64,000 bases of DNA from Akkermansiaceae bacterium. Its GTDB lineage: Bacteria; Verrucomicrobiota; Verrucomicrobiia; Verrucomicrobiales; Akkermansiaceae. Below are positions 2,881 through 10,573 of this stretch, piece by piece. Numbering within the stretch: the first letter of the stretch is position 1; each line of letters opens with the position of its first letter. Made by a program: the position numbers and the translations under genes. Below the pieces are notes generated by a model. That model was given only the letters and a program-made list of their open reading frames with translations. It had not been told where the DNA came from and did not search any database. The DNA is taken from contig JAHCBC010000006.1 in the NCBI GenBank assembly GCA_019634595.1, forward strand, positions 146,980-210,979. Direction: 5' to 3'.

Positions 2881-3810
2881 CTAACACCTCTCCGGAAATC
2901 TCTCCTTCCAGACCTCCAGCATCTGGCGGATTTCCTCCGCCTTGCGGGTGGGGCTGAGTTCCCAGATCAGCGGGCAGCCGGTGGGGAAGAACTTCAGCAA
3001 CGACTGGTAGTCCAGCGTGCCGCCGGCGAAGGGCGTGCGGTGGTCGCGGGCAGGCCACTCCACGTCATGGACGTGGCCGCCGATGGTGTGGGGCACCATT
3101 TTTTCCAGCCACTCATGGTGGTCCAGCAGGCCGAGGTTGTGCTTGAGCTGCACGTGGCCGAAGTCGTGCCAGTAGCCGACCCATTCGTTGTCCTTGAAAT
3201 GTTCCTGGAGCTTCACCATCTCGCGCTCGTTCGGCATGTCTTCGAAGCGTGAGCGGGACTCGACGGCCAGCTTCACGCCGTATTCCTTCGCCTTTTCCGC
3301 GATCTGTTCCAGTGACTCGATGGCGCGGTTGAAATACAGCGGGGCGATTTTCTCGCGCTTCTTCACGAAGGCGATCTTGTCCTTCACGTAGGCCGGGGTG
3401 TTCTGCTCCCCGGCGGCGACCATGGCGGTGAGCGGCTTGGTCCATTTTTTCGGCAGCATGGGGACGGAACCCATGTGGAGGACCAGGTAGTGTGCCCTGA
3501 ACTCCGCGGCGATCTCCAGCGTGCGGAAGGTCATGTCCATGGCCCGCTGGCGCTCGAACGGACGGTGGGAGGTGTATTCGTAGGCGTCCGGGGCGTCGAT
3601 CATGACCTCCACGGGGGAGGGGAAGTAGTTGTGGACGCCGGAGCAGGTGAACAGGCCCTGTGCGTAGGCTTTCCGGATGCCGGGCAGCTTGGCGACGGTC
3701 ATGCCATGGGAAAGCTCGATGTTGGTGAAGCCGAGATTGACGATCTCCCCGATCATGGTCTCGCCGTCGGAGTGGCGGCTGTTGTTCCAGCAGGAGGAGA
3801 AGGAAAGCAT
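2881..3810 (-). CDS. Sugar phosphate isomerase/epimerase family TIM-barrel protein
   Basis: IELSH, LVLHMG, LAVESR, YWHDFGH, GHVHD and WELSP metal-binding pattern of the AP endonuclease 2 / xylose isomerase-like family. Confidence 0.85.
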   Translation of the reverse strand: MLSFSSCWNNSRHSDGETMIGEIVNLGFTNIELSHGMTVAKLPGIRKAYAQGLFTCSGVHNYFPSPVEVMIDAPDAYEYTSHRPFERQRAMDMTFRTLEIAAEFRAHYLVLHMGSVPMLPKKWTKPLTAMVAAGEQNTPAYVKDKIAFVKKREKIAPLYFNRAIESLEQIAEKAKEYGVKLAVESRSRFEDMPNEREMVKLQEHFKDNEWVGYWHDFGHVQLKHNLGLLDHHEWLEKMVPHTIGGHVHDVEWPARDHRTPFAGGTLDYQSLLKFFPTGCPLIWELSPTRKAEEIRQMLEVWKERFPERC

Positions 3811-3819
3811 GGGAGGAAC

Positions 3820-6800
3820 CTACTCGCCATCCGGCTTCGGTGCCAACTCCGGATGCTTCGCCAGCGTGAGGGCGAGCACCTTTTTCAGCACTTCCTTCGT
3901 CTCCACGAGGAGGTTGCTGCCTTCGATGACCTCCGCGTCATTCGCCGCAGGCGCGTGTTTCAGCAGCGCGCGGTACCACTCGATGGCGGGTTCCTTCCTC
4001 CCTGCCTGGAAGTTGCCGAGGATGAGATAGACGCAGGCGTCCGTGTTATATTGTTTGTCGGTGGAGGCTTCCTTCAGGTCGTCGGCGATCTTCTGGTAGG
4101 CGGCGAGCGATTCCTCGTGGCGCTCCAGGTGGGAGAGGATGGCCGCCTTGTCATGGATGGAAATGTCCGGCCAGTCGATGGAGGCGGCGAAAAGCTCCTT
4201 CGCGCGGGGGCGTTCACCCGTCCGCCACAGGTTGTAGCCCAGGCGGATCTGGTTGAGAGGGTCGCCCGGTTTCAGGGAGAGGATGTGTTCCAGGATTTTC
4301 CGTTCCTCCGGCAGGTCGCTGCCGTCCAGCAGGACGAGGGCGGCGTGGTTCAGGTAGTTCAGGTTGTCCGGCTCCAGTGCCAGTGCCTGCCGGATGTAGT
4401 CGAGCGCGTCCGCCTTTTCCTCCGCGGCCCGTGCCCACATGCTGAGGTAGTAGCAGACGGCGGCATCCCCGGGGGCGTTCCGTTTGCCGAACTCGACCAG
4501 GGTGACGATCTGTTCATAGAGGTCTTCGGCGTGGCGTTTCTTTTTCTCGTAATCCGTGTTTTCCGGCGTCAGCTCCTTCAGTTCCTTTTCCCGGCGGTTC
4601 AGGTTGAGCTGGTACCAGTAGGCGATCGACGCGCGGGAAAGCCCGACGGCGGGCATGGCGAAGGAAAGCTCGTCGATGGTGACGGCGGTGTCCTCCAGCA
4701 TCCAACGTCCGCTGTCCGCGGAGATGGCGGGGGAGATGGTCCGCTTCGCCGGGGCTTTCAGGAACCATGAGTCCGGCGAGGCGGCGCGCACTTTGTTCCA
4801 CTCCGCGTAGGGGTCCGTCGGCACGGCCATGCCGTCCTTGTCCACCTCCATGGCGATGGCCGCCTGCGTGAGTGTCTTGAAATCCACCTTCAGATCCGCG
4901 GGTGGGCGGATTTCGATGACGATGAGTTCCCGTTTCGCGGTGTCCTGCGGACTGGGGCGGACGATGAGCAGCTTGTCGCCGCCGCCGATGAAATGGAGCT
5001 GCTCCGCGATGACGGGGTATTCCAGCGGTTGGTTGATGATGCTGCCTTCCTTCCAGTCCCAGACCTTGATGGAGGAGTTCTGGTCCCTGACGGAAATGGT
5101 GGCCAGGCGGTCGGAGTCCGGACTGAACTTCACCATGGTGATGCTCCCCAGCGGGTCGTCCAGCACCCGCGGGGAGGACTGGCTGCCATCGATCGGCCAC
5201 ACCCTGACGGTCTGCTCCATCCCGCCGATGGCGACGTACTTTCCGTCCGGACTGGAGTCGATGGCGGAGATCACGCCCGGGTGGGGGAGCTTCCGCGGGG
5301 CGGCGGAGAGGTTCCGCAGGTCCCACACCAGCGCGTAGAATTCCGTGATGGTGCCGATGGAATTGCACCCGGCGAGCAACCAGCGGCCATCCTGGCTGAT
5401 GGCCAGCGTGCCGATGCTGCACTCCGGCACCTCCAGCGGGAGGTAGCCGCTGTTGTCCGCGGCCCGCAGCTTCACGGTGAAGTAGGGGACGCCGTTCTTC
5501 TCCGCGGTGTGGTAGATGACGGTATCGTTCGTGCCGGGGACGAAGAAGATGTTCTGGAACGCGCCGGGGAGTTTCAGCGGTTCACCGATCTGTTTGCCCG
5601 TCTTCGCATCCACATAGCGGGTGAGGTCCTCATGGGTGGAGTAGAAGCGCGTGCCATCCGGGGAAAAGCCCCAGTAGGAGACGGGTTCCGGGGACTCCCA
5701 CACGGGGAAGTCGGTGCCGTCCGGGTCCGCGATGCGGATGAAGTGCACCTTGTTGTCCCCGGATAGAACGGCGGCCTGTTCGCCGGTGGCGTCCAGCAGG
5801 CAGGCCAGTCCCTTCGGGTCCGGGTGGCGCAGCGGGCCATCCTCCTTCAGGTCAGTGAGATCCCAGCGGCGGATGCCGCCGTTGTGGCCTGTGATGAAGC
5901 GGCCGTCCGGAGCCAGTGCGGAGGAGCGGATGTCGTCCACCACCACCACCGGCAGGGAGAGCGCGGGTCCTACGGAGAGATCCCACACCCGGGAGCGGTC
6001 TCCGGTGGAGGTGAGCAGGTAGCGGCCGTCCCAGGAGAGGCTCAGGTCCTGGATGGTGCCGTCATGGCTGATGGGTTCGAAGGCGAGCTTCTTCGTCTTC
6101 GTGTCGAAGATGCGCACCGTGCCGTCCGGGGTGCTGCAGATGACCAGCCGCTCGTCCGGGGAAAGCCGCACGAACACCGGGTTCACCGGCAGGTCGAACG
6201 TGATGTCCTTCTCCGGGTCTGTCTGGTGGATCACCTTCACGGAATGCTGGTTGGTGGCCACCACCATGATGTCCCCGAAGGAACTGAGGCGGAATGCGGA
6301 CTCCTGCGGCGGATAGCCCGTCCAGTGGAAGTCCCGTGAGTTCGGGATGGTTTCCAGCGTCCCGCTGTCCACGAAGATGATGTCCCCGCTGGCCATGGGC
6401 TGGCCGTCGGCGGACTTCTGCTGCCGCACGATGGCCGCCACCCCGGACTCCGCCGCCGTCTGGACGGTGGTGATGAGGTGGTCCGGGTCCACCCGGGTCG
6501 CGGTGATCTTCTTCTCCTCCAGGTCATAGCGGACGAAGTCCTCTCCGGAGGTGGAGAGCATGCCGCCGTCGTCCGTTTCGCGGAAGCTGAGGCGCTCGCC
6601 CTTCTGCTTCCACTGCGCGTAGGGCTTGGCGTCCTTCACGTTGAAGACATGGGCGGTGCCGTCCGGCGTGCAGTAGAGGAAATGGCGGCCGTCCCGCGTG
6701 CAGCTCAGCGTGACGAAGTTGTCCGGGATGCGTGTGGGCGGGGAGGCTTCCGCCTGCCCTTCTTCCGGCACCTCCCAGAAGCGGATGGTCATGTCCTTGC

Positions 6801-9507
6801 GGATGTTGAGCACCAGCGTGCCGTCCTCCATGATGACGGAGGCGAAGGAGTCCGGCTCCTGCGTCCATTTCCCCGGCACCACTTTCTTGCTGCCAAGGTC
6901 GAACACCTCCGGCAGTCCCGCGCCGTTCTGGTAGAGGATGCGCTGGACGGGGCCGCGCGCGGCGCCGGAAATCCACTGTCGTTCCCCGGCGGGGCCGGTG
7001 GCGGACAGGATGGGGATGGCCTTCGGCAGGCCGTAGAGGTGGTAGGAATAGAGCCGGTCGATGACACCCCGGTGCCGAGGGTCGATGGCCAGCGCGTGGG
7101 CCAGGCTGGCCAGGCCGTCCCGTGTCTTGCCGACGCGCAGGTTCTCGTTCCCCAGCAGATAGGCCGTGCGCACCTGGCTCTCCAGGGCGGTGGCGGTGGC
7201 TCCCTCGGCGATCCGCCGCTGGTCCTGCGCGATTTCCTTTTGCTTCACCGCCGCGATGCGCTCGCGGTCCGCGGCCTTTTTCTGGACGAAGGCGTAGGCG
7301 CCCCCGGCCACGGCCAGCGCGCTGAGTACGAGGGCTCCCGTAGCAATGAGGCGCGCGCGGCGCAGGCGGGTCTGCTCCCGGTGGCGGGCCTTTGCCGAGG
7401 AACGCGTGACGTAGTCGATCTCGCGCGCGTCCAGGGAGGCCGCGTGTTTCGCCAGGATGCCCTCCGCCTCCGCCAGCGGCGGGCCGGACGGGATGAGGTA
7501 GTGGTCGGACGACTGGTGCTCCAGCCACTCGGAAAGGCGGGCGGCCATCCGCGAGCGGGCGCGGAGGAAGTCGAGATTGTCCCGTACCCAGTCCACCACG
7601 CGGGGCCAATGGCGGAGCAGCGCCTCGTGGGCGACGGAAACCGTCCGTTCGCCCTCCGGAGGCTGGTCCACGGTGAGCAGGCGCGCGGCCACCAGGGCGT
7701 CCACCAGTTGCGGCGCGCCGGGGGAAGCGGTGAGCGCGTCGAACCCCGCGCGGCGGCGCACCGGCTGGCTGCCGTCTGACAACGTGACAAGCTGCCGCCA
7801 TACCTGGTCGAAGGCGGCTTTCGCGTCCGCGGGCAGGGCGGTGAAGACGGACTCCGCACGGCGGCCGATGGCACCTTCCAGCCCGCCGAGGTCATGGTAG
7901 GCGGCGAGCGTCAGCAGGCCCTCCGGCGTGCGCCGTTCATAGAGCTGCTCCAGAGTGTAGCTGAGCAGCGGTAGGGCGGCGGGGTCCTTGATGGCGGCAT
8001 CCCGCAGGAGTTCATCAAGGTTCTCTCCGGTACCGCGGTTTTCCTCGAAGACCAGGCCCGCGGCGGCGGCGGGCTGGCGGATCATCTGGCCGATGTCTCC
8101 GGCGGTGGGGGCGGGCAGCGGATAGGTGCCGCGGTCGCGCATCAGCTCGACCAGCTTCGGGTGCTTGAGGCATTCCGGGTAAAAGTCGCTGCGCAGCGTG
8201 CCCAGCACGAACACCCGGCCGCTGGAGGCGAGCGCGGCCAGCTTCTCGATGAACGACGCCACCGTGTCCTCCGCCATGCCGCTGGTGAAAAGTTCCTCGA
8301 GCTGGTCCGCCAGCACGGCCAGCCGCACGGCGGGTGGTGTGAGATCGGCCAGCTTTTGCCGCAGCGCCTTCGCGTCCTCCTCGCGTGCTTCCTGCTCAAA
8401 GCGGCGGATGTTTTCCTCCAGCCGGTGTTCCTCCTCCGTGCGGGCGAGCGCGGCGGCCTGGGAGAACGCCTGGCGCAAAAGGATTTCCGCGCCGTTGCCG
8501 GGCGAGCGCAGCATCGTGGCGATCTCCGCGGAGGTGGTGCCGGCGGAGGCCAGTTCCGGAAGTGCCTCCGGTGCCAGCAGCGCGGCGGCGAATGCGGCGA
8601 AGGGATCGCCCGCGCCATCACCCGGCTTGAAGATCGCACGGCGCCAGACCTGTGCGCCCTCCACCACGCCCGGCTGCACCAGCATGGGCAGCACACCCGC
8701 GCGGGCGAGCGAGGATTTCCCGCTGCCGCTGGACCCCAGGATGAGGACGAAATGCTTTCCCTGTCCGCCGTTCGCCTGTGCTTCCAGCTCCTGCATCTGG
8801 AACGCCTCCACCACCTCGCCGACCTGCGCGGTGCGGCCGAAGAAGACGGGGGCGTCCTTGAAATCGAACGCGGACAGGCCGAGGTAGGGCTGCCCCTGGT
8901 AGCTCGCCTTCGGGGACTTCTGCGCGTTGATGAGCGGGAAGCGTCCCTCCAGGAACGAGCGCAGGGCGAGGCTCAGCTTTTCCTCGAACTCGCCGAGGGT
9001 GCTGTAGACATTGATGGCGCTGGTGAAGTACTTCTCCTCCTGGAAGTACTTCTCGAAGAAATGGTCCAGCCGGTCGATCTCCCGGTCCACCTGCTCGCGC
9101 GCCTCCTTCGGGCGGCTCGGGCGGCGGGGTTCCGTCGCGTTGCGGAAGACGAAGATGTCCGGCGTGCCGCGCACGTTGTGCGCCTGCATGGCGGTGAAAA
9201 ACTCATACTCCGTCCCGCTTTCGAAAAAGCCGCCGCCCGGCCGTGGGTGGCGGTTCGGGTGGAGCGGCGTCCCCAGCCGGGACCACAGCATGCAGACGAC
9301 GATGTCGAAGCCGTCCATCTCCGGGATGTTCTCCTGGTAGTCCTTTGTGGCCACCATCACCTCATGCTCCCAGAAATACGGCTCGATGGCCATACGGTCG
9401 CCCACCTCACCCTGCAGCCGGTCCACGATGCGCTTCGCCGTCTCCCGCTCCATTTTCACGTCTCCCGGGGAACTGAAGAAGATGCGGACTTGAGTGGGAG
9501 AACTCAT
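3820..9507 (-). CDS. DUF4062 (TIR-like) + nSTAND1 NTPase + TM helix + WD40 propellers + TPR, 1895 aa
   Basis: N-term RIFFSSPGDV..ERE and SGTEYEF; PYLGLSAF...VFFGR; Walker A GSSGSGKS (8713-8736); Walker B-like LADQLEELF; LGTLRSDFY; hydrophobic LIATGALVLSALAVAGGAYAFV; WD-like repeats; Ala-rich helical repeats at C-term. Confidence 0.85.
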   Translation of the reverse strand: MSSPTQVRIFFSSPGDVKMERETAKRIVDRLQGEVGDRMAIEPYFWEHEVMVATKDYQENIPEMDGFDIVVCMLWSRLGTPLHPNRHPRPGGGFFESGTEYEFFTAMQAHNVRGTPDIFVFRNATEPRRPSRPKEAREQVDREIDRLDHFFEKYFQEEKYFTSAINVYSTLGEFEEKLSLALRSFLEGRFPLINAQKSPKASYQGQPYLGLSAFDFKDAPVFFGRTAQVGEVVEAFQMQELEAQANGGQGKHFVLILGSSGSGKSSLARAGVLPMLVQPGVVEGAQVWRRAIFKPGDGAGDPFAAFAAALLAPEALPELASAGTTSAEIATMLRSPGNGAEILLRQAFSQAAALARTEEEHRLEENIRRFEQEAREEDAKALRQKLADLTPPAVRLAVLADQLEELFTSGMAEDTVASFIEKLAALASSGRVFVLGTLRSDFYPECLKHPKLVELMRDRGTYPLPAPTAGDIGQMIRQPAAAAGLVFEENRGTGENLDELLRDAAIKDPAALPLLSYTLEQLYERRTPEGLLTLAAYHDLGGLEGAIGRRAESVFTALPADAKAAFDQVWRQLVTLSDGSQPVRRRAGFDALTASPGAPQLVDALVAARLLTVDQPPEGERTVSVAHEALLRHWPRVVDWVRDNLDFLRARSRMAARLSEWLEHQSSDHYLIPSGPPLAEAEGILAKHAASLDAREIDYVTRSSAKARHREQTRLRRARLIATGALVLSALAVAGGAYAFVQKKAADRERIAAVKQKEIAQDQRRIAEGATATALESQVRTAYLLGNENLRVGKTRDGLASLAHALAIDPRHRGVIDRLYSYHLYGLPKAIPILSATGPAGERQWISGAARGPVQRILYQNGAGLPEVFDLGSKKVVPGKWTQEPDSFASVIMEDGTLVLNIRKDMTIRFWEVPEEGQAEASPPTRIPDNFVTLSCTRDGRHFLYCTPDGTAHVFNVKDAKPYAQWKQKGERLSFRETDDGGMLSTSGEDFVRYDLEEKKITATRVDPDHLITTVQTAAESGVAAIVRQQKSADGQPMASGDIIFVDSGTLETIPNSRDFHWTGYPPQESAFRLSSFGDIMVVATNQHSVKVIHQTDPEKDITFDLPVNPVFVRLSPDERLVICSTPDGTVRIFDTKTKKLAFEPISHDGTIQDLSLSWDGRYLLTSTGDRSRVWDLSVGPALSLPVVVVDDIRSSALAPDGRFITGHNGGIRRWDLTDLKEDGPLRHPDPKGLACLLDATGEQAAVLSGDNKVHFIRIADPDGTDFPVWESPEPVSYWGFSPDGTRFYSTHEDLTRYVDAKTGKQIGEPLKLPGAFQNIFFVPGTNDTVIYHTAEKNGVPYFTVKLRAADNSGYLPLEVPECSIGTLAISQDGRWLLAGCNSIGTITEFYALVWDLRNLSAAPRKLPHPGVISAIDSSPDGKYVAIGGMEQTVRVWPIDGSQSSPRVLDDPLGSITMVKFSPDSDRLATISVRDQNSSIKVWDWKEGSIINQPLEYPVIAEQLHFIGGGDKLLIVRPSPQDTAKRELIVIEIRPPADLKVDFKTLTQAAIAMEVDKDGMAVPTDPYAEWNKVRAASPDSWFLKAPAKRTISPAISADSGRWMLEDTAVTIDELSFAMPAVGLSRASIAYWYQLNLNRREKELKELTPENTDYEKKKRHAEDLYEQIVTLVEFGKRNAPGDAAVCYYLSMWARAAEEKADALDYIRQALALEPDNLNYLNHAALVLLDGSDLPEERKILEHILSLKPGDPLNQIRLGYNLWRTGERPRAKELFAASIDWPDISIHDKAAILSHLERHEESLAAYQKIADDLKEASTDKQYNTDACVYLILGNFQAGRKEPAIEWYRALLKHAPAANDAEVIEGSNLLVETKEVLKKVLALTLAKHPELAPKPDGE

Positions 9508-9574: not shown

Positions 9575-9617
9575 CTCAGGATGCCTCCCCGCGGAGGCGG
9601 GTGTCAATTCGGGAGGC
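9575..9617 (-). promoter_or_regulatory. 43-bp promoter-like block, copy 1 (TTGACA-N18-CATCCT on minus strand)
   Basis: 40/43 identical to 10531-10573; 68 bp upstream of the STAND gene start; GCCTCC-N4-GGAGGC palindrome in the spacer. Confidence 0.7.
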
Positions 9618-9719
9618 TGGGGGGAAGGCACCGTTGGGTCCGGGATTTCGACCGCAGATGGGAGTGGATGAGCGCGGATGAATTCCCGGGGACGGGAAAA
9701 AAATCCGGACTCCAGGCGG

Positions 9720-10505
9720 CTACTCGGGGATATAACCGAAAAGATCCTGTCCGAATAGCCCTATGAATGACGTTTTCGACGCTACCACATCATTGGTGAG
9801 TGGATCGCGATATTCAACCCTCGCTCTACGCTGAGAGGGTTTCTGCTCTGCTGGCTGTAGCGGACTGGCTGGAAAATTGCTTTCGCGATCTGCGATGGAA
9901 ATGATGATTTCATTGGCCCCGAGTCTTCCCGCCATGCCATCCACAGGCATACTTTTTGCCAGTTCCCATGCACGTTGCTCACCGACGATGGAACCAAGGG
10001 AATCGAGAAACTCCCCGAACTGTCTTTCGCCTTCTTCCTTGAAGGGCTTGATCCGGTAAGTTCTGATGTTTTCGTCATCGCCGGAGATTTTGATCTTCGA
10101 CATGTTGTTTGATAGGACGGCCCGCATCCTGGTCGTTAGGTCATCATAAGAAATCTGAATCCTGGCAGCCTCTTCAGTGGTCAAGGAGGCAGCTTCAATG
10201 GCTCCATGTGTCAGTCTGCCGTCAGTCCCTATCAGTCTGTAAGGCGGGCGACGTTTTACGATGCGGCGATATTTTGCGATCACATCGACGGCAGACAGAT
10301 CACTGGGTCGATGGGCGAAGTCCGTCCGGTCCTCGTTTTCTTTCCGGCTCCGGAATTCAGTGCCGCTGACGTCTGTTCGTTTTCTTTCCGGGGTGAAGGA
10401 GTGTTCACGGGACGCTTGTGAATGGCTGTCTTTGTTGCTGATGGATAAAACAAAGACGATCACGGCGATGATGAGCGCGGCTATTCCCAGTGATAGAAAT
10501 TTCAT
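9720..10505 (-). CDS. Hypothetical N-terminally anchored/secreted protein, visibly lower GC
   Basis: 261-aa ORF, hydrophobic N-terminus MKFLSLGIAALIIAVIVFVL; more A/T than neighbours. Confidence 0.75.
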   Translation of the reverse strand: MKFLSLGIAALIIAVIVFVLSISNKDSHSQASREHSFTPERKRTDVSGTEFRSRKENEDRTDFAHRPSDLSAVDVIAKYRRIVKRRPPYRLIGTDGRLTHGAIEAASLTTEEAARIQISYDDLTTRMRAVLSNNMSKIKISGDDENIRTYRIKPFKEEGERQFGEFLDSLGSIVGEQRAWELAKSMPVDGMAGRLGANEIIISIADRESNFPASPLQPAEQKPSQRRARVEYRDPLTNDVVASKTSFIGLFGQDLFGYIPE

Positions 10506-10530
10506 GTTGGTTGGCGCGGTTCTACCGTCT

Positions 10531-10573
10531 CTCAGGATGCCTCCCGGCGGAGGCAGATGTCAATTCGGGAGGC
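10531..10573 (-). promoter_or_regulatory. 43-bp promoter-like block, copy 2
   Basis: Direct repeat of 9575-9617; 26 bp upstream of the 10505 start codon. Confidence 0.7.

Follow-up and report, generated by a model that had tools for sequence, protein, structure and literature searches.

All bacterial NLR-like (STAND) immune proteins studied so far detect their triggers intracellularly, which is also how a 2026 Nature survey of STAND receptors framed sensing; periplasmic sensor domains have been predicted for other STAND proteins (Dore et al. 2024). The nSTAND1 clade was named by Kaur et al. (eLife 2021, PMC8195603), whose main text holds no discussion of transmembrane (TM) segments or topology. 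The Figure 2 source data of that paper list 'nSTAND1+TM' 412 times, nSTAND1+TM+BetaPropeller+TPR 8 times, Pkinase+nSTAND1+TM 20 times and DrHyd+nSTAND1 49 times, together with rows for CASPASE+nSTAND1+TM+BetaPropeller, TIR+TM+BetaPropeller, Pkinase+nSTAND1+TM+BetaPropeller and DrHyd+nSTAND1+FGS, and the DrHyd rows are annotated as DUF4062 proteins. DUF4062 (NIR) has been reported as a Glu-dependent NADase effector in Swarozyc, Evangelion, Vulcan, Vesta, human TEP1 and the STAND protein PsAvs2 (three 2026 preprints), and in PsAvs2 the NADase was shown experimentally, with E108 as the catalytic residue (10.64898/2026.09.04.749371, 10.64898/2026.05.01.722283). Here, we describe a gene in a 64,000-nucleotide (nt) stretch of an Akkermansiaceae bacterium (contig JAHCBC010000006.1, positions 146,980 to 210,979; hereafter the window), whose product combines a DUF4062-type head, an nSTAND1 NTPase, one predicted TM helix, WD40-type propellers and a TPR tail, and which we read, with moderate confidence in the account as a whole, as a single-pass inner-membrane NLR-like STAND immune receptor with an NADase mechanism.

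3820-9507, minus strand: the whole gene, 1895 amino acids (aa), with its own promoter-like region upstream (open reading frame; same start in orthologues).

The gene is a single uninterrupted open reading frame (ORF) with an ATG start that agrees with the start of its orthologues, which open M..P..VRIFFSSPGDV, and a promoter-like TTGACA-N18-CATCCT precedes it by about 100 nt. The nearest public relatives are from Luteolibacter (Verrucomicrobiota): a metagenome contig encodes one at 99% identity and Luteolibacter sp. SL250 one at 82%, and about 50 full-length orthologues of 1866-1911 aa were found with identities down to about 40%. A search of sequence runs recovered the gene in DNA metagenomes only, with no RNA runs among them. 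The first-pass annotation, made from the sequence alone, had listed an intact Walker A motif, a conserved Glu in SGTEYEF, one TM helix and a long WD40 and TPR region; this domain set was borne out, with about 1150 aa of WD40 and TPR repeats lying behind the helix.

7507-8889, minus strand: nSTAND1 NTPase (NOD, helical and winged-helix parts), residues 207-667 (PF20703, E=2.6e-93; conserved motifs; ratio of nonsynonymous to synonymous substitution rates, dN/dS, 0.04-0.07).
8710-8736, minus strand: Walker A GSSGSGKSS, residues 258-266 (motif conservation).
8293-8322, minus strand: Walker B LAVLADQLEE, residues 396-405 (DQLEE at least 90% conserved in 110 homologues).

The central domain is matched by the nSTAND1 profile with 314 bits against a curated cut-off of 27.1, covering profile positions 1-377 of 379. 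Its P-loop NTPase motifs, Walker A GxxxxGK[ST] and Walker B hhhhD.hEE, are intact, and the TLRSDFY and winged-helix VAHEALL..W motifs are conserved alongside them in the same 110 homologues. The Pfam scan of the gene product lists nSTAND1 as the NTPase, with no NACHT match and no Pkinase match.

8938-9507, minus strand: divergent DUF4062/NIR (TIR-like, 'DrHyd') head, residues 1-190, predicted to be cytoplasmic (DUF4062, PDC-S60, AlphaFold2 (AF2) with Foldseek, dN/dS 0.014).
9199-9219, minus strand: SGTEYEF, residues 97-103, candidate catalytic Glu motif (E102 invariant, E100 at least 90% conserved).

Three motifs have been described for DUF4062, namely an aromatic F near the N-terminus, W-E, and an acidic S-x-T stretch in which an aromatic residue comes after the catalytic Glu, and this 'acidic-SYT / E-aromatic' region is the catalytic region of the domain (10.64898/2026.06.25.731849). 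All three motifs are present in the head in the published order, as F10, W46-E47, and E102-F103 in S97-G-T-E-Y-E102-F103. In the head alignment F10, S12, S13, D16, E20, R21, E47, Q58, W75, R77, G98, T99 and E102 are invariant and W46 and E100 nearly so; in a few of the 23 diverse head homologues, position 100 is Asp instead. Judged by motif content and order, SGTEYEF corresponds to the DUF4062 catalytic region, and E102 is likely the catalytic residue, since it is invariant and has F next in the sequence. Among the same 23 homologues 19 match DUF4062 at E<=0.1 (best 4.9e-5), and the PADLOC candidate model PDC-S60, a name not found in the literature, matches the head at E=1.5e-10. The AF2 model of the head (mean per-residue confidence, pLDDT, 88; predicted TM-score, pTM, 0.84) has a three-layer alpha/beta fold, for which Foldseek returned TIR-STING, the RPS4 TIR domain and nucleoside 2'-deoxyribosyltransferases (NDT) at weak E-values of 1e-4 to 3e-3 and TM-scores of 0.3-0.54. 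By homology with PsAvs2, Swarozyc and TEP1, the head would be expected to possess NADase chemistry.

7282-7350, minus strand: single predicted TM helix LIATGALVLSALAVAGGAYAFV, residues 720-742, with RLRRAR in the N-side flank and QKK in the C-side flank (hydrophobicity, family conservation).
7135-7281, minus strand: long post-membrane stalk helix, residues 743-791 (AF2 helix, residues 42-92 of the model; length differs by one heptad between strains).

Residues 720-742 form the only strongly hydrophobic stretch of the protein, with a Kyte-Doolittle (KD) value of 1.84 over 19 residues and a next best of 1.27. An equivalent helix lies 460-480 residues past Walker A in 120 of 121 homologues, including distant nSTAND1-WD40 and kinase-bearing proteins, and its uncharged core has a median length of 21 residues (range 19-28). 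The 15-residue N flank carries on average 6.4 K/R versus 3.3 in the C flank and is the richer one in 118 of these 120, although the homologues share ancestry and their count does not stand for 120 independent trials. Because of this excess in the N flank, the positive-inside rule predicts that the NTPase lies inside and the repeats outside (N-in/C-out), and by these sequence features the protein very probably spans the inner membrane with its sensor on the outer side. A sum on the Hessa scale, made by hand, comes to about +1.3 kcal/mol, a marginal value, and was not used as evidence.

Inside the helix, conservation reaches 90% or more at G724, A725, A732, G735, G736 and A739, which suggests helix-helix packing. 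Such conservation exceeds what a passive anchor needs, and Kaur et al. (2020) suggested that a Gly-rich TM helix in EACC1 has a sensing or active part; on these grounds, the small-residue helix (AGA..L...A.AGG) might itself be the output, with helices bundling upon NTPase oligomerisation to perturb or perforate the membrane and the DUF4062-like head being regulatory. We consider this very improbable, as helix-helix packing for signalling would explain the conservation just as well, the catalytic-type residues of the head are under very strong purifying selection, and a single-helix pore has no known precedent in STAND proteins.

A near-identical strain, represented by a contig of a bioreactor metagenome, has a 21-nt deletion at window position 7207 within the stalk; the spacing from the end of the TM helix to the hairpin that follows is 43 residues in this gene versus 36, and orthologues cluster at 35-37. 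A difference of exactly seven residues is expected if coiled-coil phase matters.

7033-7125, minus strand: TPR-like two-helix hairpin GKTRDGLASLAHALAIDPRH...RLYSYHLY, residues 795-825, which is the GxxxxGLxxLAxALxxDP motif (motif conservation, AF2).
4912-7017, minus strand: about 700 aa of beta-strand blades, probably two WD40-type propellers, the predicted periplasmic sensor, residues 831-1532 (Pfam, AF2, Foldseek).
5008-5847, minus strand: fastest-evolving sensor stretch, residues 1221-1500 (50-58% aa identity to SL250; dN/dS 0.50-0.70).
4645-4881, minus strand: post-propeller linker with a W-F...P..R-T-I-S-P motif, residues 1543-1621 (W1581, F1582, P1586, R1589 and P1593 invariant).
3856-4644, minus strand: TPR solenoid tail, residues 1622-1884 (TPR_2 at 1.4e-8 and other TPR families; AF2 all-helical repeats).

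The AF2 model of residues 700-1895, built on a 10-sequence alignment (pLDDT 82, pTM 0.71), gives the order of the predicted ectodomain as the hydrophobic segment, a 50-residue helix (741-791), the hairpin, the blades, a small linker domain, a disordered loop and the TPR solenoid. The hydrophobic segment is unpacked in this model and of low pLDDT. The hairpin profile also matches generic TPR repeats. Many beta-propeller and WD40 families of Pfam match past residue 830 (about 830-1530), where the blades are four-stranded with pLDDT mostly of 80-93, and the roughly 700 residues of blades are probably two propellers in the model; the TPR region spans about 1620-1885, with TPR family matches at 1660-1860. 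Foldseek of the ectodomain returned proteins with a propeller pair and a solenoid (IFT-A subunits and the COPI alpha and beta' subunits) as well as the double propeller of Apaf-1 (3sfz, E=2.3e-21). The best matches, IFT-A and COPI coat subunits, share the order of two propellers and then an alpha-solenoid with window positions 3856-7017, probably as a likeness of architecture only, and homology to IFT-A, COPI or Apaf-1 was not accepted, the TM-scores being low and the likeness one of layout. This layout recalls the 'membrane-coat-like' proteins reported from PVC bacteria (the superphylum that includes Verrucomicrobiota).

The segment from TM helix to hairpin recurs outside the family. A profile of the two together (A3), searched against 1.84 billion representatives, matches 547 proteins at E<=1e-10. 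Among the 42 full-profile matches, taken as a single stretch or as two, the domains on the N side are TIR_2, nSTAND1 with or without a DUF4062-like head, AAA_35 and a Pkinase C-lobe, the last being one protein (P0169) with a Pkinase fragment ahead of the cassette; WD40 follows on the C side in 31 of the 33 proteins whose C-terminal side was scanned. The TIR, kinase and NTPase heads of the cassette always stand on its N side and need cytoplasmic substrates, and therefore support the N-in topology. Moreover, one relative (P0204), whose N-terminus is TIR-like by eye from a FISY motif only, carries the TM-hairpin-WD40 cassette with a C-terminal LysM peptidoglycan-binding domain (E=1.5e-10), which gives independent support for a sensor outside; other members end in Sel1 repeats. 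The linker motif is also found in distant cassette members. A modular sensor common to different cytoplasmic heads is thus supported.

These data also bear on the view that the hydrophobic segment is no membrane span but a peripheral anchor, or a helix that is buried or serves oligomerisation, so that the sensor would be cytoplasmic and the protein an ordinary cytosolic NLR-like defence protein. Such a view would agree with the characterised bacterial STAND sensors, which all act inside the cell, and with WD40 propellers, which are typically cytoplasmic folds; in this subclade the helix is also rich in Ala and Gly and moderately hydrophobic, and it has positive charges on both flanks. It is nonetheless improbable in view of the length of the uncharged core and the flank asymmetry across the homologues, the failure of the segment to pack against any domain in the AF2 model, the LysM ending, and the presence of the same segment between TIR, kinase or NTPase heads and repeats in unrelated architectures. 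Kaur et al. likewise scored the segment as TM.

The genome encodes only one paralogue of the sensor, a protein of about 1176 aa at C1:795629-799222 on the minus strand, outside the window. It runs from TIR_2 (E=1.8e-11) through a TM helix and the TPR-like hairpin into at least 11 near-identical WD40 repeats, then the linker in the form R-T-I-T-P and a TPR-like tail. TIR_2 is fused straight to the TM helix in this protein, without a STAND NTPase, like a Toll-like receptor read backwards. Kinase-bearing relatives of 2000-2300 aa (e.g., P0060, P0063 and P0068) place a Ser/Thr kinase ahead of the same DUF4062-like head, nSTAND1, TM helix and WD40 repeats, and so carry two candidate output domains on one receptor.

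The interpretation given in the first-pass annotation stands in part. Its DUF4062-type, TIR-like head is upheld by the motif trio, an AF2 fold with some likeness to flavodoxin, TIR and NDT folds and the 2026 preprints on DUF4062 as a TIR-like NADase, and its TM helix by the features of a true N-in/C-out span, namely occurrence in 120 of 121 homologues, the charge bias of the flanks, the unpacked AF2 segment and the LysM-ending relative. The GxxxxGLxxLAxALxxDP motif that it had singled out is real, being the TPR-like hairpin kept throughout the family, and the proposal that the part after the helix resembles the sensor module of kinase receptors agrees with the A3 matches behind TIR_2, nSTAND1, AAA_35 and the Pkinase fragment. 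The further proposal, that a kinase had been swapped for an effector-STAND module, finds no support as a recent event: the TM helix is the common state in nSTAND1-WD40 homologues, and in the kinase relatives Pkinase has been added in front of the head and nSTAND1. The comparison with kinase-WD40 paralogues that it had suggested found none in the genome, the sole match being the TIR-TM-WD40-TPR gene.

The two halves of the protein evolve at very different rates. Identity to the SL250 orthologue is 100% in the head, 97% in the NTPase and 50-58% over residues 1221-1500, and Nei-Gojobori dN/dS rises from 0.014 in the head and 0.04-0.07 in the NTPase to 0.12 in the TM region, about 0.3 in the first propeller and 0.5-0.7 over residues 1221-1500; the same gradient is seen across 47 orthologues. 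The head and NTPase together are present in 8 of 81 genomes of the family and, within the genus, in 2 of 8 that were sampled, and the genomic surroundings differ from one orthologue to another. Such an accessory gene of patchy occurrence, its signalling half frozen and its outer half fast-changing, favours a conflict receptor, and a conflict or immune role would fit the near-frozen head and NTPase, the fast second propeller and the patchy distribution.

Several observations weigh against an immune receptor of this kind. The synonymous rate dS is itself raised in the sensor, from 0.23 to 0.75-1.06, and recombination with diverged alleles may contribute to the sensor divergence; dN/dS stays below 1 throughout, so that relaxed constraint is indistinguishable from diversifying selection. 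A second species has the gene at the matching chromosomal position, which points to vertical retention, and its neighbours are housekeeping genes, including sucB, a xylose-isomerase-like TIM barrel, an esterase and panC; none of the nine neighbour genes matches PADLOC, which gives no defence-island support. For the head, the protein misses the gathering score of Pfam DUF4062 (PF13271) with 14.8 bits versus a cut-off of 24.7 (E=0.035), the structural matches to TIR and NDT folds are weak and intermingled with flavodoxin-like folds, and the sequence profile found no meaningful match among PDB sequences and thus no solved structure; the DUF4062 assignment is supported at the family level by sequence despite the subthreshold score. 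Compared with other orthologues, this subclade has the least hydrophobic TM helix (KD 1.84 versus 2.0-2.6).

Some of these points would suit a receptor of the same membrane-spanning architecture that has no part in immunity and reads envelope state or development, its head acting as a regulator or signal generator instead of a suicide NADase, and its periplasmic propeller and TPR tail docking to a partner of the cell's own, for example peptidoglycan, a polysaccharide or an outer-membrane protein. No defence genes are near, one locus is kept in two species beside the TIM-barrel gene 9-12 nt off, the genome holds a single nSTAND1 gene and not an expanded repertoire, and the human DUF4062-STAND proteins NWD1, NWD2 and NPHP3 gave no NADase activity in vitro. 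We judge this non-immune role unlikely, although it is the alternative that we take most seriously: the gene is patchy, a sensor so diverged from that of an orthologue with an identical head fits a fixed endogenous partner poorly, and conservation is strict for the catalytic-type Glu and for every DUF4062 motif.

In the immune receptor that we prefer, the DUF4062/NIR-type head and the nSTAND1 ATPase would lie in the cytoplasm, and the stalk helix, TPR-like hairpin, two beta-propellers and TPR solenoid in the periplasm. An envelope ligand, which might be a phage, a competitor or damaged envelope material, would bind the variable propeller surface and either cluster receptors or free a constraint relayed via the TM helix and stalk. 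The nSTAND1 modules would then bind or exchange ATP and oligomerise, an activation step proposed by analogy with Avs, Apaf-1 and TIR NADases, so that the heads meet and cleave NAD+, or a related nucleotide, via Glu102, and the affected cell would arrest its growth or die. A wider proposal, unlikely as it stands and put forward tentatively, is that the clade and the larger cassette family are 'outside-in' pattern-recognition receptors, in which a hypervariable periplasmic double propeller acts through the TM helix and a heptad-phased stalk on an NLR-type ATPase that fires a DUF4062 NADase, with the TIR-TM-WD40 paralogue as a short form in the style of Toll-like receptors; the ligands would then be phage parts at adsorption or injection, or competitor toxins. 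If the predicted topology and NADase output are true, bacteria also have membrane-spanning NLR-type receptors that watch the periplasm, in which the sensing logic of Toll-like receptors and receptor kinases is joined to an NLR switch. The present gene is a good test case, being a single gene with an intact catalytic-type head, a frozen cytoplasmic half versus a fast outer half, and a paralogue that shares its ectodomain design.

2881-3810, minus strand: xylose-isomerase-like TIM barrel (AP_endonuc_2), no signal peptide, 9 nt downstream of the STAND gene (Pfam, 1.5e-16).

The TIM-barrel gene adjoins the 82% and 56% orthologues (L003 and L007) at 9-12 nt and is absent at the loci of 44% orthologues (L004-L006), whose contexts all differ. 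It was rejected as a constant partner, the link being unproven, and is possibly a co-transcribed neighbour in the closest subclade only. The two-gene block of STAND gene and TIM barrel (window 2881-9507) is inverted relative to its conserved flanks when compared with L003:8001-14627 (SL250), with sucB on one side and esterase-panC on the other. The synteny of the esterase flank is too poorly kept in other genomes of the genus for an empty-site comparison. Upstream, a gene of 261 aa at 9720-10505 on the minus strand encodes a protein with a membrane anchor or signal sequence at its N-terminus; neither Pfam nor PADLOC gives a match, the 82% orthologue has no counterpart of it alongside, and the gene was rejected as a partner. 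The stretch that holds it, 9575-10573, is of lower GC content (0.53). A 223-aa ORF was also tested as a member of the system.

Compared with known systems, the gene product shares with the nSTAND1 systems of Kaur et al. the NTPase clade and the order of TM helix, propeller and TPR, and it has the catalogued layout nSTAND1+TM+BetaPropeller+TPR, with one TM helix between NTPase and propeller and then TPR. The DUF4062 head occurs on nSTAND1 in other rows of that catalogue, but the exact combination does not: a direct text search of the Figure 2 source data gave 0 occurrences of the string DrHyd+nSTAND1+TM. PsAvs2 resembles the protein in its N-terminal DUF4062-type head, a catalytic-type Glu near position 100, the STAND NTPase at its centre and the repeat sensor at its C-terminus, and the expected output would be the same, namely NAD+ depletion on oligomerisation. 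The present protein differs in that its NTPase is nSTAND1 and not of the Avs2 clade, its sensor is WD40 plus TPR versus TPR alone in PsAvs2, and a TM helix lies between NTPase and sensor; PsAvs2 detects phage terminase within the cytoplasm, but the present sensor is predicted to face the periplasm, and there is no defence-island context. Avs-type proteins in general also have an effector, a STAND NTPase and a C-terminal repeat sensor on a single chain, but their sensors are cytoplasmic and bind a phage protein, whereas a predicted N-in/C-out TM helix precedes the sensor here, and the gene has no association with defence islands or mobile elements, the contexts of its orthologues being mixed.

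Human TEP1, NWD1 and NWD2 and the bacterial 'TEP1-like' proteins have the same order of DUF4062, STAND NTPase and WD40, with the head directly adjoining the NTPase (10.64898/2026.05.01.722283; 10.64898/2026.06.25.731849), but they possess NACHT instead of nSTAND1, lack a TM helix and a TPR tail, and are soluble cytoplasmic or vault proteins. Apaf-1 likewise joins a STAND NTPase to a double WD40 propeller sensor, to which the propellers gave the structural match noted above; unlike the present protein, it is soluble, with a CARD head, an NTPase of the AP-ATPase clade, no TM helix and no TPR tail. The bacterial TIR-TM-WD40 proteins carry the same cassette of TM helix, stalk, TPR-like hairpin, WD40, R-T-I-[ST]-P linker and TPR-like tail, but have no STAND NTPase, TIR_2 being joined directly to the TM helix. 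The PVC Ser/Thr kinase-TM-WD40 receptors share the TM helix, TPR-like hairpin and WD40 cassette and differ in their protein kinase domain, which this protein does not have. The layout is thus not new, since it stands in a published supplement, recurs in many genomes and belongs to a very large family; what distinguishes this gene is its intact DUF4062-type head, the asymmetry of evolutionary rate between its two halves and the presence of a TIR-only paralogue in the same genome.

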